Below are positions 4,830 through 28,579 of a stretch of DNA of 64,000 nt, piece by piece. Origin of the DNA: Squalus acanthias (Eukaryota); the NCBI GenBank assembly GCA_030390025.1, contig CM059432.1, positions 12,772,001-12,836,000 of the forward strand, written 5' to 3'. How positions within the stretch are numbered: position 1 is the first letter of the stretch; every line of letters starts with the position of its first letter. The translations under genes and the position numbers were made by a program. A model generated the notes under the pieces. It saw only the letters and a program-made list of their open reading frames with translations, was not told the DNA's origin and searched no databases.

Positions 4830-5990
4830 TACTTCCTCCATCCCAATTTTTGGTTTCCTCTTGAAGGGCAGACACATGGTGAGATAATGGGCTGGAATTA
4901 GCGGTAAGTAATAACGGCGAACTAACAGCGTTTGCTGTTATTACCCCTTTGAAACTGACCGCAATTTCAGGATGTGGCGCCTGCGCATCGAAACGCAGAA
5001 ATCCTGAAGTTGCGGTCAGTCATTCATTGTTCCACTGTGGCCCCTCCGACCCACCACCCTCCCCTCCCCATAGCCGGCAATCAATGAAATCAGTGAAACT
5101 GAAGAAAACTTGGGTTTTTCTGTGGTAATATTGCTATTAAATACCCCATTAAAAGCTAGCCCTTGTTGGATTAGGTGTAACTTAGGTGCAACTGGGCTTT
5201 TAACAGCATATTGACTGCTAGCAAACGTTATGGCCCTGAAAAACTAATTTAAATTTTGTGTCAAATTTCTCCATTATAATCAAAATTACAATTTTTAAGA
5301 AACTTTTAGAAAAAATGTTTTTATATGTTTTAAAAGTTTGTTCATATTTATTTCAGCTTTTACCTTTTCCCCATCTGAGAGCCCCAATCTTTGTTTTGCT
5401 CTCTGTAACATTTTTTAAAAAGTCAGGATAAAAGCAGGTTCTCATTTCCTGCTTCCCTGTCTGTGAGAATTCTGCATTGTGATTGGCTGTTCAGACAGCT
5501 TGTTGACGTCACAGCAGATCGCGGTAGGGATTCCCCATTATAGAGTGCTGCAACCTCTTACGCGTTGAAAAAGGGCAAACTTCTCGCCAAAGAGATCGCG
5601 AGATCTTTGTGGGCGGCTTTCTTTGGGGCCAACGGCGAGCGCCTTTGCTTCGCCACTGACCGCAAACTCCGGGACACAGTGCCACAAGTGCCAGGAGCCC
5701 CTCTGCTACCTTACCTAGGTCACTACTCTTCGCATATGAGTCAGGACAGTGAGAGTTAGTGACCTATTTGACCCTGAGCGACATCACAGCCAATTCGAAC
5801 CACGCCCTCACCGAACGTCCACATTCATGCACTTCCTGACAGGTGACACTGGAAGGTTATCAGCTACAGAAACCCTGGGTGAGTTCCCAGCCCTTCCGCC
5901 CCCGAGCCCAAGGTGCTGAAGCTAATTTTAGCATCTCAACTGCAGCCCCAACTGAGATCAACTAACTCAGCACAGGCTGGAGATCTAGTC
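4830..5990 (-). mobile_element. Ancient SINE, AmnSINE2-like, split by the MITE at 4889-5675
   Basis: Minus strand ctgtgctgagttagttgatctcag...aattagcttcagcacc...tggacgttcggtgagg resembles the recalled AmnSINE2 body; second remnant at about 42125-42230. Confidence 0.5.
4889..5675. mobile_element. Harbinger-type MITE, family B
   Basis: Left end gggctggaattagcgg, right end ccgcaaactccgggac; AT-rich centre; similar to 9557-10290; right TSD not preserved. Confidence 0.65.
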
Positions 5991-9179: not shown

Positions 9180-10378
9180 AAAGAATGTGCATTTATATAG
9201 CGCCTTTCGTATCCTCAGGATGTCCCAAATTGCTTCACAGCCACTGAAGGACGTTTGAAGCATAGTCACTGTTGTTATGTAGGCAAATGCAGCAGTCAAT
9301 TTGTGGAGAGCAAAGTCCCACAAACAGTAATGAGTTAACTGACCAGATACTTTGTTTTTGGTGGTGTTGGTTTAAGGATAAATATTGGCCAGGACAAAGG
9401 GGAGCGCCCTTGCTCTTCTTCAAATGGTCCCATGGGATATATTACATCCAACTGAGAGGGCAGATGGGGCCTTGGCTTAATTTCTCATCCGAAAGATGGC
9501 ACCACCAACAGTGCAGCACTCCCTTAGTACTGCACTGAAGTATCAGCTTAGATAATGGCCCGGATTTTGCTGTAATAATAACGGCCAAGCTATCAGCGCT
9601 CACCGTTATTACAGGGTAAATATGACAGCAACTTCTGGCGTCCACACATGCGCAGTTAAATACGGAAATCCAGAATTTGCTCCTTCGCAGACCTCACCGA
9701 TAAGACACGGCACTGAAATCACTGTAATGGCGCGAACTTAGGGTACTTACCCACTAGTTCCGCACTAAAAACGGCTGAAAATGTTAGGGCTCATGCATTT
9801 AGGAGTAAGTAAGTTTTTAACGGTGTAATAAGTGATAATTACTGCTGAACAACCTCTCTGGCCCTGAAAAATTCAATCTTACAAGTGTGGAGTCTCATTC
9901 CCTCAGAAGAAATTAATGATGCAGATTTAAATAAAAATAAAAATTAAAATATTTTTTTTTACTTTTTCTGTTTGTCTCTTTTATCTCTCTCCCTTAATCC
10001 CATCTGTATTTCCCAATCTTTTATTTTGCTTCCTGTACAATTATTTAAATGTAATTCATATTTCCTGTTTTTTTCTTCCTGGTTTGGACTCAATGTGCCT
10101 CTGTGAGGATACTTCAATCTGATTGATTAAAGAGCCTCGCTGTTGCTTTCCCTGTTCACAGACACCACAGATCCCCCGTTGAGGGTGCCACACTGAAACA
10201 GATGCCGGATTAGTAGAAATCTCCGCTGACAAGCCTGTGAAAATCTGTGGGCAAGGTAAATGGCGAAAGCTGAGAGCAAAAATCCGGGCCTATGTGAGTA
10301 AGTCTATGGAAGTGGGGGTTAGCCCCAGAACCTTCTAACTCAAAGATGAGGGTGCTACCACTGAGCCTAGACCGACAC
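9180..10378 (-). mobile_element. SacSINE1-like Deu-SINE split by a MITE
   Basis: Degenerate match to the copies at 12922 and 46487; tRNA head at 10291-10378. Confidence 0.8.
9557..10290. mobile_element. Harbinger-type MITE, family B (734 bp)
   Basis: TIR ggcccggattttgc / gcaaaaatccgggcc; flanks aat/tat; inserted in a SINE. Confidence 0.85.
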
Positions 10379-22556: not shown

Positions 22557-24720
22557 TGAAGTGGAAGAGTTTCTACAAGTATGTAAAAAGGAACAGAGTA
22601 GCAAAAGTAAACGTTGGTCCCTTAGAGGCTGAGACAGGAGAAATTATTATGGGAAATAAGGAAATGGCAGAAACGTTAAACAAATATTTTGTATCTGTCT
22701 TCACAGTAGAAGACACAAAAAGCATACCAAAAATGGTGGGGAACCAAGGGTCTAATGAAGGTGAGGAACTTAACGTAATTAATACAAGTAGAGAAAAAGT
22801 ACTCGAGAAACTAATGGGACTTAAAGCTGACAAATCCCTGAACTTGACGCCTACATCCTAGGGTTCTAAAAGAGGTGGCTAAAATTCCCTAGATTCTGGA
22901 GAGGTCCCAGCGGATTGGAAGGTCGCAAATGTAACACCGCTATTCAAGAAAGGAGGGAGAGAGAAAACAGGGAACTACAGGCCAGTTAGCCTGACATCAG
23001 TCGTCGGAAAAATGCTGGAATCCATTGTTAAGGAAGTGATATCAAGTCACTTAGAAAATCATAACACGATTAGGCAGAGTCAACATGGTTTTATGAAAGG
23101 GAAATCATGTTTGACAAATTTATTAGAGTTTTTTGAGGATGTAACTAGCAGGGTAAATAACGGGGAACCAGTGGATGTAATATATTTGGATTTCCAAAAG
23201 ACATTCGATAAGGTGCCACATAAAAGATTATTACACAAGATTAGGGCTCATGGGGTTGGGGGTAATACAGTAGCACGGATAGAGGATTGGTTAACGGACA
23301 GAAAACAGAGAGTAGGGATAAACGGATCTTTTTCAGGTTGGCAGGCTGTAACTAGTGGGGTGCCGCAAGGATCAGTGTTGGGGCCTCAGCTATTTATAAT
23401 CTATATTAATGACCTAGATGAAGGGACCGAGTGTAATGTATCCAAGTTTGCTGATGATATAAAGCTAGGTGGGACAGTAAGCTGTGAGGAGAACACAAAG
23501 AGTCTGCAAAGGGATATAGATAGACTAAGTGAATGGGCAGTAAAGTGGCAGATAGAGTATAATGTCGGGAAATGTGAGGTTATTCACTTTGGTAGGAAGA
23601 ATAGAAAAACAGAGTATTTTTTAAATGGTGAGTAACTTTCAAATGTTGGTGTTCAGAGAGATTTGGGTGTCCTCGTGCAAGAAACACAGAAAGCTAGCAT
23701 GCAGGTACAGCAAGCAATAAGGAAGGCAAATGGCATGTTGGCCTTTATTGCAAGGGGGTTGGAGTATAAGAGTAAGGAAGTCTTGCTACAATTGTACAGG
23801 GCCTTGGTGAGACCACACCTGGAGTACTGTGCACAGTTCTGGTCTCCTTATCTAAGGAAGGATATACTTGCCTTGGAGGTGGTGCAACGAAGGCTCACTA
23901 GATTGATTCCTGGGATGAGAGGGTTGTCCTATGATGAAAGATTGTGTAGAATGGGCCTATACTCTCTGGAGTTTAGAAGAATGAGAGGTGATCTCATTGA
24001 AACATACAAGATTCTGAAGGGAATGGACAGGGTAGATGCTGAGAGGTTGTTTCCCCTGGCTGGAGTGTCTAGAACTAGGGGGCATAGTCTCAGGATAAGG
24101 GGTCGGCCATTTAAGACGGAGATGAGGAGGAATTTCTTCACTCAGAGGGTTGTGAATCTTTGGAATTCTCTGCCCCAGAGGGCTGTGAATGCTGAGTCTT
24201 TGGGCTGGATTTTCTTTGACCCGTGGAGGTGGGTTTGGAGGCGTGTGGGGGGTTAAAATTGCGAAAACTGGCGGGCGGGCACAAGCCCGCCTCCATGCAA
24301 TTTTCATTAAATCGTGTCTGCTGGTCCCGACTCCGTCCCGCCTCCAAGAGGTGGGATAGGCCGTTAAGGCCCTTAACAAGCACTAAATTGCCTCTATAAT
24401 GTCATTTTGAAAGGCCTTTGTGATTTTAACCCTTTTTCCACATGAAGCACGCCTGTTCTGAACCACGAATGTGAAACCAGACGGTAGCACATTTGGATTG
24501 CTGACTATCAGCTGCAGCTCAACCATGAAATAGGAGATGTGATCAGCCATCATTTGCAGTTGGCAGGACTTTGTTGTCTGAGGTCTGGGGGAACTTTTAT
24601 ATGGCATAACCACAGCTGTGGAAGTTTGGAGCCTGACACCCATCTCCAGTGTGACCTCCTGGGAAACCCCTCTCGCCACCTTGACTGAGTGCTTCCTCAA
24701 CTGAGGCATTTACCAGAAGC

Positions 24721-24942
24721 ATGGGAACCATTTGTTTCCTTTCCTCCTGGAGATCAGATTCGGACGAAGACCAGCCGTGGCAGCAGCAGAACCCTGAACA
24801 ACAGCACCACCAGCAGCAGCAGCATCAACAGGAGTGCCAAGCTGCTCCTCACCCACCTGAAGCTGCACAGGCCAGAAGGCGCCAGCGCACGACCACATTG
24901 CTGCCCGAGATGCAAGGGACGCACTTGACCAGATTTGCTTAG
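24721..24942 (+). pseudogene. Harbinger transposase remnant (putative N-terminus fused to C-terminus; DDE core absent)
   Basis: MG...SDSDEDQ..Q-rich..ARRRQR then (shifted frame) HIAARDARDAL and TRFA*; sits where a convergent transposase is expected; no catalytic motifs seen. Confidence 0.5.
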
Positions 24943-25197
24943 CCTGCACAATCAAACACTTTTGCCTCGCACCTTCTTATCAAACCATCGACAATGGCCA
25001 GGAACCTATGGATTCCTATTACTCTGACCACCATACTGACAATTGCAAGTCATCCTAAGCCCTCAATGTGGAAGTCCCATTTGCGAAATTACAGACGCCA
25101 CAACTTCAGCAGTTTGCCAGCAGAATTTTTAATTACACCAAGCAAGTGCTGGCATTTCAAGATTAAACACATTACACCCAAGTGACTACCCTTGTGA

Positions 25198-27163
25198 CTA
25201 CTTGTGCATTATTTTTCTTTTACGCATGCTCCTACGTGGTGCTTCCCCTGTGGCTTCAGCAGATGTGGAGGCCCCTTGCTCACTTTCTTGCTGCTCCTGC
25301 CTCGACACCATTGGCGGGCGTCCTCTGGGGTTGCGAACCTGTGAGGGCTCGGCAACAGTCTGCTGCTCCTGCAGCTGTGCAGGGGTTGAGACAGCGATTT
25401 CAGTTGGGTGAGGACTCTGGTGGGGCTCTGACCGAGGGCTTTGCAGTGGCTTGGTCGTGTGAGCGCTTGGAGAGGAGCCCCCACTTCCTTGTTGTCTGCC
25501 GCCAACATCCCTCTCATGGGTCAGCCCCACTTCAGCGCTTGCAAGTGGATTGAGAGCACCTTGCTGCACATCAGGGGGGCCATGGGGACCCGTATCTGCA
25601 CTGGAAGTCCTACTCAGAAGGACTTCCATGAAGGTCTGGTGTCTGTGTTCAATAGATGACCATCGCTCCTCAAGAGATGCCAGTCTATTCTGAACAATGA
25701 CCATGTTTTCTACACTCTGGCGACTTATCTCCTCCATAGCCGTAGCCATCTTCCCCTCTACTGTAGCTATCCTTTCCACGGAGGATGCCATCCTTTCCGT
25801 GGTGATGCGTTCATGTGCCAATGACTCCACAAAGGCTCTGCTCATGTTCGCTATGGACTCCTCCATTCGCTCCACACTCGCAGCGACCCTGGAGACAAAA
25901 CCTGCCAGAGACTCCTGCATCTGTTCCTGGAGTTCCAGCACCGCTGATCTTATGGATGGACCCAGAGGCAGAGGGTCGACATGCAGCTGAGCCGAGCTAG
26001 GAGAGTCCTGTGCCCTCCGACTAGGACTCTCCACTGCTGTCCCTGTCTCCACTATCTGCTGATGCTCACTTGTGAGCTGTGATACACCAGGTGACAACAC
26101 TACTCTCTCTTGCGATGTTCCCTCCGAGGTGTAAGTGTCTGCGCTGGTGCTGGGTGCGCTGAATTCTGCTGACGCGGCGACCTCAGAGGTTGCAGCTTCC
26201 TCTGAGGAGTTGTGAGGCTCATGCTCTTCCTCCTGGACGGTGGGGACGGGGGCTTTCGATGGTCCTGGGGGGAAGTAAATTAAAGAGTCAGAGATGTGAG
26301 TCCAAGGTTACATGCACATTGCATATTGCAGATGATCATAAGTCAGTCTGCTGGAGCATCAGAATCATTATCAGTGACTCATGCAATGTCAATGAGAGAG
26401 ATGATAAACTATTCTGTCACCAGCTTGCTCTGATGCACCCATCTGTCCGTCCCCCACTTGCACATCCTCCTCCACTCCCATGATCTCCAGGACCGCCTCC
26501 TCCCAGGGGGTGAGCTGGGCTACTGAGGGTGGCCCTCCTCCTGTCCTCGCTCTTTCCCTCTTATTGTGAGCTCTCTTTTCCTGCAATGAGGGAGACAAGT
26601 GGAGTTTGAGTGAGAATGAAGGAGTGAGTGTAGAGAATCTATATCATTGATGGTTAGAAGGAGACAAATTCGGAGTGAGGTGGCAAGACCATGGGCCCTC
26701 CCTGTGTGTTGTAAGTTGTTTTCATAGCATCACAGCGATAGGGAGTGTGAGGGCTGAATAGTCGAATAGTTAGGTGAATGTGACCATACAGAGAGAGGGA
26801 ATGGGTAGGGGTGCAGGGATGTCAGTGTCAAGTGGGATGTGGAGGAAGAGGTTGTCAAAGCTGAGTGCTGGTGAGGAGAGGCAATGGGGATCAGAATGAG
26901 GATGATGGGAAATTCATACTCACTTTTCCAGTGCGCAGCAGGTCATGAAACCTCTTCCTGCACTGAAGCCAGGTTCTGCGGGTTATGGACAACGAGTTGA
27001 CCTCCTCTGCCACCTGGATCCACACAGCCTTGGTTTGATGGGAAGGTTTCTTTCTCCCTGAAGAAGGGAAGAGCACCTCCTTATTAGCTCTGGCTCCCTC
27101 AATTAAAGCTTGCAGGGCGACGTCATCAAATCGAGGTGCAGACCTAGGTCTCTGGCTGGCCAT
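25198..27163 (-). CDS. Harbinger Myb/SANT-like (trihelix) DNA-binding protein, about 488 aa; exons 27163-26924, 26580-26421, 26264-25198
   Basis: RSAPRFDDVALQALIEG..LF..WIQVAEEVNS..RTWLQCRKRFHDL then KRAHNKRERARTGGGPP; GT-AG introns with compatible phases (0, 1); no stops; C-terminal RRSMRKRK; second donor is weak and an upstream ATG at 27187 is possible. Confidence 0.85.
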
Positions 27164-27614
27164 TCTTCCTGCAGGTGCCTCTAACATGCAACGGTTGAAG
27201 CTTGGCATTCTGCAGAGGAAGCAAGGCTTGTTGCAGACCTTAAATGCTGCAGCAATGATGACGTCATCGGAAGCGACTTTCAGACTGGAAAATCTCACTG
27301 GGGATGGGTTCCCACACGTTGGAACTCAATTGGCCAATTATGTTAAAATCGCATCAATCTCCCACATCGATTTAGATTCGGGTGGCTAACACGAAATGCG
27401 GATTACACGACCCTAGCCCGCCCCTGAATAAAAATCCAGCCCTTTGAGTATATTTAAGGCTGAGATAGGTAGATCTTTGGACTCTAGGGGAATCAAGGGA
27501 TATGGAGATTGGGCGGGAAAGTGGAGTTGAGGTCGATGATCAGCCATGATCTTATTGAATGGCTCGAGGGGCCATATGGCCTACTCCTGCTCTTATTTCT
27601 TATGTTTTTCTGTT

Positions 27615-28255
27615 CGTAAAGCGAACGAAAGCTCAGGGTCACACTTGTGGACTGAACGGAGGTGTTCATCAAAGTGATTACCCAATCTGTATTTGGTCTC
27701 CTCATTGTAGAGCAGTCCGCATTGTGAGCAGCGAATACAGTAGACTAACTTGGAAGAAGTACAAGTAAATAGCTGTTTCACATGGCTGGAGTGTTTGGGG
27801 CCCTGAACGGTGGGAAGGGAGGTGGTGAAAGGGCAGGTGTTGCATCTCCTATGTTTGCACGGGAAGGTGCTGTGGGATGGGGAGCGGGTATTGGGGGTGA
27901 TGGAAGAGTGGACCAGGGTGTCACGGAGGGAACGGTCCCTTCGGAATGCTGAAAGGCGAGGGGAAGATGTGTTTGATGGTGACATTGTGCTGGAGATGGC
28001 AGAGGACAGTCCATTGAATATGACAGTTGATGGGGTGGAAGGTGAAGGCAACGGGGACCCTATCATGCATCTAGGTGGGAGGGGAAAGGGTGAGGGTGGA
28101 AGTGCGGTAAATGGGACGGTCTCAGTCGGGCGCCCTGCCAACCACGGTGGAGGGGAATCCTCAGCTGAGGAAACAGGAAGGCATTCCAGCACTGGTGTGG
28201 AAGGTGGCTTCAACGGAACACATGCGACGGAGATGGAGAAACTTGGAAAATGGAA
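27615..28255 (-). mobile_element. Penelope-like GIY-YIG region fragment
   Basis: AFRRDRSLRDTLVHS...PCKHRRCNTCP...FTCTSSKLVYCIRCSQCGLLY..ETKYRLGNHFDEHLRSV. Confidence 0.88.
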
Positions 28256-28579
28256 TGCGTGAGAAGTTGGAATTGTCATGATCACATGCAATAATACTCA
28301 AGTATCAGCATGCAGCCCACAATGGGTGCGATGACATGTACCTATATACCCTGCAGCTACATTAGAGGGAGATTATTTTAGGCTAAATGCTTGTAAGGAC
28401 GTGAGTGAGTGAAGACTGAAGGGTGGGGCTACAAGGCGCACCCTGTTGCATAATGTAGATGCATGCTAAAGCTTGAACGTACTTTAAAATCATCTGAGGG
28501 GAAGGAATTGTAAATGTCATACATGCATGCATTGTATTAACAGAAGGTAGTGGTGGGTTTTCATACCTTGGCTGTCCTA

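Follow-up and report, generated by a model that had tools for sequence, protein, structure and literature searches.

A 64,000-nucleotide stretch of the Squalus acanthias genome (assembly GCA_030390025.1, contig CM059432.1, positions 12,772,001 to 12,836,000 of the forward strand; hereafter the window, whose own numbering is used for all positions) contains a 3,241-bp element at 24202..27442 that displays the features of the PIF/Harbinger superfamily: terminal inverted repeats (TIRs), a 3-bp target-site duplication (TSD), a Myb/SANT trihelix gene and membership of a dispersed multi-copy family. The element retains an intact three-exon Myb/SANT gene and lacks the core of the DDE transposase. With modest confidence, we read it as non-autonomous, derived by internal deletion from a two-gene shark Harbinger and moved by transposase supplied in trans.

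Structure of the element and its insertion site

The two 12-bp TIRs (24202..24213 on the plus strand and 27431..27442 on the minus strand) form a perfect inverted repeat, and the element is flanked on the left (24199..24201) and on the right (27443..27445) by the TSD TTT; a 12-bp inverted repeat and a 3-bp duplication would coincide at fixed ends by chance with a probability of ~1e-9. Removal of the element with one TTT leaves the continuous 3′ end of a long interspersed element (LINE), which we take to be of the CR1 type, and four other copies of this LINE in the window align across the joined site without a gap (>400 nt, 75–87% identity; four of the 12 matches listed, two of the 12 being self-matches). 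Joints corresponding to the empty site (~24197–24199 to ~27444) were furthermore present in the contigs of all four sequencing runs that were aligned. The host LINE lies on the plus strand, with the end of its second open reading frame (ORF2) at 22883..24198 and the rest of its 3′ end, placed by the empty-site alignment, at 27446..27600; it carries an RVT_1 domain (E 5e-33), and over the 1,319 nt at the end of ORF2 the frame is unshifted and interrupted once, by a stop at 23633. An earlier note on this DNA had described the TIRs, the TTT TSD and the insertion into a CR1 3′ end, all of which are borne out by the inverted repeat and the gap-free empty-site alignments. Neither the element nor its Myb gene recurs elsewhere in the window.

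Next to the left TIR, a subterminal region (24214..24720, plus strand) without a Pfam match presumably represents, by its position, the promoter and 5′ untranslated region of a lost transposase gene. The opposite subterminal region (27164..27430, minus strand) would serve as the promoter of the Myb gene; the observed/expected CpG ratio was 0.73 over 27164–27442, as compared with 0.46 for the whole window.

The Myb/SANT gene and the missing transposase

The Myb gene is encoded on the minus strand by exon 1 (26924..27163; 240 nt, with the ATG at 27163), exon 2 (26421..26580; 160 nt) and exon 3 (25198..26264; 1067 nt), which are separated by two introns with GT-AG borders (26581..26923, 343 nt, and 26265..26420, 156 nt). 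The joined exons encode 488 aa, and the sole stop is terminal. Exon 1 encodes the Myb/SANT trihelix domain, matching Myb_DNA-bind_5 (PF13873; E 1.3e-9, with 38.3 bits where the cutoff is 21.7), recovering PF13873 clusters at 0.90–0.91 in the ESM Atlas and showing 50–51% identity over 80 aa to two shark proteins. The product of exon 3 comprises a Ser/Thr/Pro/Glu-rich linker, a more hydrophobic segment (aa 236–350) and a basic C-terminus. An unfiltered HMMER scan with exon 3 yielded 11 relatives at E≤0.001, and the 10 that were looked up are shark gene models from Heptranchias perlo, Pristiophorus japonicus and Heterodontus francisci; word-index protein searches returned no match for either exon 1 or exon 3, a weak negative since HMMER found these 11 relatives of exon 3.

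Residues 1–483 of the spliced product align with the shark protein XP_067827223.1 (40% identity, E 2e-95), and the alignment with XP_067830712.1 extends up to residue 481 (31% identity). Exon 2 is collinear with both proteins and both alignments are unbroken at the two splice points, so that these end-to-end relatives provide independent support for the predicted exon model. For intron 2, 12 donor/acceptor pairs were tried, of which four were in frame; the chosen pair gave the top score against XP_067827223.1 and the second, five points behind, against XP_067830712.1. An in-frame ATG upstream (5′) of 27163 was considered as the start and rejected, because both full-length relatives begin at the Met of 27163. 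The three minus-strand exons with GT-AG introns and the stop-free frame of ~488 aa proposed in the earlier note are thus upheld by the joined frame and the alignments with relatives, and the N-terminal trihelix domain named there was identified by Pfam as Myb_DNA-bind_5.

A further match to exon 3 was seen in a CDK2-like isoform model of Heptranchias (XP_067843925.1), in which the final ~100 residues resemble the end of the exon (46%); a family copy may have been exonised into a kinase gene, or the tail may be an artefact of annotation.

None of the 97 stop-to-stop frames of at least 22 aa in the element matched DDE_Tnp_4, and the 984 bp between the left TIR and the stop of the Myb gene leave too little room for a transposase; the absence of the transposase core, as claimed earlier, was in this way confirmed. 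The position convergent with the Myb gene, where the transposase would be expected, holds 222 nt on the plus strand from an ATG at 24721 to a TAG (24721..24942). This segment encodes a Gln-rich and then Arg-rich start, followed in another frame by a short Ala/Arg-rich end, and presumably consists of the fused N- and C-termini of the transposase, as judged from its position, its orientation and its resemblance by eye, with the presumed deletion junction near 24890. It gave no match by word search or in Pfam and no usable match in the ESM Atlas; the fish Harbinger sequences in the available part of a published survey are trimmed to the core (PMC9179366). The length of ~220 bp given by the earlier note for this segment therefore stands, while its account of the segment as fused termini found no match in any search. 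The window copy lacks five nucleotides after 24923 that are carried by contigs of all four runs. The spacer between the convergent stops (24943..25197) contains ATTAAA on the plus strand at 25162 and on the minus strand at 25133, and varies among copies.

Lacking a transposase core, the element would be mobile only with transposase in trans, and the earlier suggestion that transposase is borrowed is accordingly supported as the sole route for an intact Myb gene unaccompanied by that core. Both proteins are necessary for Harbinger transposition: the transposase is imported and recruited by the Myb-like protein, which also binds the element ends (PMC9392472). For mPing, the two proteins are likewise required and are able to act in trans, and excision is more frequent for smaller elements (PMC10288884). 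An ancestor of the element would have lost the DDE core of its transposase while the two ends and the convergent Myb/SANT gene with its three exons were retained, and cut-and-paste transposition by the transposase of intact relatives would have spread the shortened form, with the Myb protein supplied by the element itself or by its siblings. One such jump would have landed at TTT inside a young CR1, after which the copy would have drifted neutrally, its Myb frame remaining open mainly through the youth of the copy. We infer that the deletion preceded the jump and is common to many copies, that the element was mobilised in trans and that a Myb protein may be produced.

Copies in shark sequencing runs, the Myb frame and the deletion

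To 19 of the 20 runs listed (from nine studies, with eight organism labels and one unlabelled run), a share of 0.33–0.65 of the element's sampled words could be assigned; the remaining run, X20 (share 0.15), was left out. Contigs from four runs, two of DNA type (X1 and X10) and two guessed to be RNA (X16 and X17), were aligned to 24150–27500 at 85% likeness, giving 30,009 contigs for X1 and 117,702 for X10 that are mostly 90–99% alike, pieces of the host-LINE flank included. None of the listed runs that contain the element carries an RNA designation. All 30 bins were covered in all four runs, and four records of X17 continue from the left TIR into other flanks. The summed depth over the element is mostly 1e5–1e6, with single long contigs at ~10–90, values that do not represent copy number; the Harbinger family nevertheless appears to be very abundant. 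For loose ends, joints and pieces, what follows refers to those listed: the 24 with the best support among 3,377 loose ends, 15 joints out of 184 and 32 pieces out of 151,385.

The depth drops several-fold or more over 26950–27285 and ~25130–25165, reaching zero in places in X1, as if the Myb-domain exon, the promoter and the 3′ spacer of the window copy differed from the family majority, either as a distinct subfamily or as a recombinant. In X16, two contigs match the 5′ end with 4/171 and 4/196 differences; the window copy may belong to a younger subfamily. The splice joints of the Myb gene (26580/26924 and 26264/26421) were not among the 15 joints listed of 184, although contigs cannot establish their absence, and contigs of the two runs guessed to be RNA span introns as well as exons. 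Two low-depth joints, with sides of only 28–30 letters, suggest deletion forms in other copies: one in X16 from 24554 to 27231 points to a form of ~570 bp with both ends, and one in X10 joins 24879/24883 to 25537, its left break lying at most ~10 nt from the presumed transposase junction.

The state of the Myb frame was assessed from the best 40 of 884 difference rows, ranked by support, 17 of which fall in the Myb exons, all in exon 3. These comprise five synonymous and 12 nonsynonymous changes (neutral expectation, 25–28% synonymous), corresponding to an omega of 0.89 (95% range 0.29–3.2); an omega of 0.2 was rejected (P=0.003) and one of 0.5 was not. Strong purifying selection is thus not borne out by the 17 coding rows listed, and the coding differences of the window copy look neutral. 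On the decay of the host CR1 (one stop in 1,319 nt), a frame of the length of the Myb gene has a chance of ~0.33 of being free of lesions; as the host LINE is older than the insertion and little decayed, the open frame needs no selection. None of the 12 indel rows listed lies in the Myb exons, the rows forming only ~3 clusters, and contigs from other copies carry out-of-frame deletions within these exons (skips of 112, 86 and 68 nt).

The same data bear on the idea of a division of labour, in which a Myb-only lineage would be maintained by transposon-level selection that keeps the Myb gene for scarce transposase donors and for MITEs (miniature inverted-repeat transposable elements). We hold this to be improbable. 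It would fit the full-length open frame that is collinear with shark relatives, the indel rows, the X16 contig with a short two-end derivative and the precedent of the nematode C. inopinata, in which 14 of 19 loci bearing the MADF gene only are intact and several are expressed (PMC13668399). The 5:12 ratio of synonymous to nonsynonymous differences (omega ~0.9) and the contigs with out-of-frame deletions, however, argue against such maintenance. By the usual reasoning on DNA transposons, a trans-acting protein confers little benefit on the copy that encodes it, which further lowers the case.

Far less probable still is a role in the host, whether by co-option as an early MSANTD/NAIF1-like gene or as a dominant repressor that occupies the TIRs. 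Harbinger Myb genes have been domesticated repeatedly in jawed vertebrates (PMC9392472), and the Myb frame is intact here; yet the element is not a single-copy host gene devoid of mobile ends, since its TIRs and TSD are intact and its family is very large; the CR1 that it entered, necessarily older, has hardly decayed, and there is no sign of strong constraint, an omega of 0.2 being rejected. A repressor is further disfavoured by a protein of full length with no truncation or change that would suggest a dominant negative. The repressor or early domestication step entertained in the earlier note is not supported, given the retained TIRs and TSD, the location inside a CR1, membership of a family of very many copies and neutral-looking differences.

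Some of the contig data bear on whether the transposase deletion is shared by the family. The bin containing the junction (24822–24933) is no shallower than its neighbours in X1 (515k vs 470k and 473k) or in X10 (286k vs 220k and 173k), and no loose end near 24890 is found among the best 24 (six per run), among which other departures from the majority do appear (24325, 24517, 24617, 25750 and 25945 in X1). The lack of both a depth dip and a loose end is a weak hint that leans towards a shared junction. By the competing account, a complete two-gene Harbinger inserted here, or at a locus a few copy generations earlier, and then lost its transposase core as a one-off event, the family at large being ordinary and two-gened. 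We consider this unlikely. Were most copies complete, strong loose ends would be expected to either side of ~24890, yet the six listed per run include none, and the depth in X1 and X10 shows no dip there (a weak point, since it rests on the best six loose ends per run). In favour of a one-off event, the window copy has undergone at least one other private deletion, of the five nucleotides after 24923, and so decays by deletion; low-depth deletion forms occur elsewhere, from 24883 to 25537 (X10) and from 24554 to 27231 (X16); and the coding differences are neutral-looking.

Several further points weigh against our preferred reading, that of a trans-mobilised derivative whose deletion is older than its jump. 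No contig bridging 24890 is present among the 32 pieces listed, a point also in favour of a one-off deletion, and the hint of a shared junction is weak because only part of the loose ends, joints and pieces is listed. The Gln-codon repeat beside the junction may attract unrelated contigs and inflate the depth, and mostly complete copies would likewise cover both pieces of the remnant equally. No transposase of the family was recovered in the JGI metagenomes (237 pattern matches, none confirmed, and no exact match to a 21-nt pattern), in the ESM Atlas or by word search. The 17 coding rows are a support-ranked subset from the low-complexity exon 3 and are compatible with moderate constraint (an omega of 0.3–0.5). 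Finally, the C. inopinata family is reported to have a TWA TSD, unlike the TTT seen here, and the 12-bp TIR is shorter than the 25–50 bp usual in fish (PMC9179366).

A stronger form of the preferred reading, in which most members of a very large Harbinger family in at least eight shark species carry the deletion, is possible though doubtful. If true, a 3.2-kb coding element bearing the Myb gene only would have come to outnumber its two-gene parent by orders of magnitude, providing the first vertebrate case of a C. inopinata-type split, at far larger scale, and shark genomes would be loaded with many ready-made Myb/SANT genes as raw material for NAIF1/MSANTD-type domestication.

Elsewhere in the window, a 734-bp non-coding element at 9557–10290 with a perfect 12-bp TIR (10 of 12 letters like those of the main element) and the flanks AAT and TAT is probably a Harbinger-type MITE of another family; its interior is not similar to that of the main element, the best blastn match having E 1.0. 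A 274-bp element at 4889–5162 is bounded by imperfect TIR-like sequences of this type, contains a hairpin and begins with 40 bases that resemble the start of the 9557–10290 element. To the right of the host LINE, a 234-aa frame on the minus strand (27593–28297) has no Pfam match at E≤1 and, by eye, resembles the end of a GIY-YIG endonuclease of the Penelope type. The window is repeat-dense: among the 27 long frames scanned, six match RVT_1 beyond that of the host LINE itself, one matches an endonuclease domain and none contains a host gene domain.

Comparison with known Harbinger systems

The closest proteins, XP_067827223.1 and XP_067830712.1 of Heptranchias perlo, are end-to-end collinear Myb proteins of 465–466 aa at 40% and 31% identity, respectively; they belong to other subfamilies or species and are annotated as MYPOP-like or uncharacterized. 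With autonomous vertebrate Harbingers such as Harbinger3_DR and those of fish and coelacanth, the element shares TIRs, a 3-bp TSD and a Myb/SANT trihelix ORF (PMC9179366). Unlike these, it has no DDE transposase ORF, as an autonomous Harbinger would, and has the shorter TIR noted above. The presence of Harbinger in sharks is not new, as the genome paper on the grey reef shark reports Tourist/Harbinger to be its commonest DNA transposons; a fish survey that detected no Harbinger in the elephant shark called for other cartilaginous fish to be tested. Expanded and expressed Myb-bearing Harbingers are described in a paper on the newt Pleurodeles, the available part of which mentions no transposase-less lineage. 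In the open-access literature we found no description of a vertebrate family bearing the Myb gene only, Repbase, Dfam and subscription journals lying outside the search.

Similar to the rice mPing/Ping/Pong system, in which mPing is moved by ORF1 and transposase in trans, the element would be a non-autonomous deletion derivative; in contrast to mPing, a 430-bp non-coding MITE, it keeps a whole DNA-binding gene (PMC10288884). NAIF1 and MSANTD1–4 share the same kind of origin from a Harbinger Myb-like gene, yet they are ancient syntenic host genes (PMC9392472), whereas the shark element is young, retains its ends intact and belongs to a large repeat family.

By analogy, the transposase-less, Myb-bearing layout has a published precedent in a nematode. 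Harbinger-1M_cIno of C. inopinata likewise combines termini, a 3-bp TSD and an intact intron-containing Myb/MADF gene with the lack of a DDE ORF, and the shark element shows the same set of an intact Myb gene, intact ends and no DDE transposase; the nematode element arose by internal deletion, and the supply of transposase in trans was inferred by its authors as a hypothesis (PMC13668399). MADF-only copies have expanded in that species, accounting for 19 of 258 elements (14 of the 19 intact), and a new insertion, expression and one intact DDE locus were demonstrated; the authors (2026) state that a split between DDE and Myb genes was previously unreported in the superfamily (PMC13668399). Taken as a single copy, the shark element is an ordinary deletion derivative. 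If its junction is family-wide, it would extend the split to vertebrates and provide a large set of copies with which to ask why the DNA-binding gene, rather than the transposase, was retained. Compared with the nematode element of ~1.6 kb, that of the shark is 3.2 kb long, carries a domain of the PF13873 type in a predicted protein of 488 aa and belongs to a far more abundant family.

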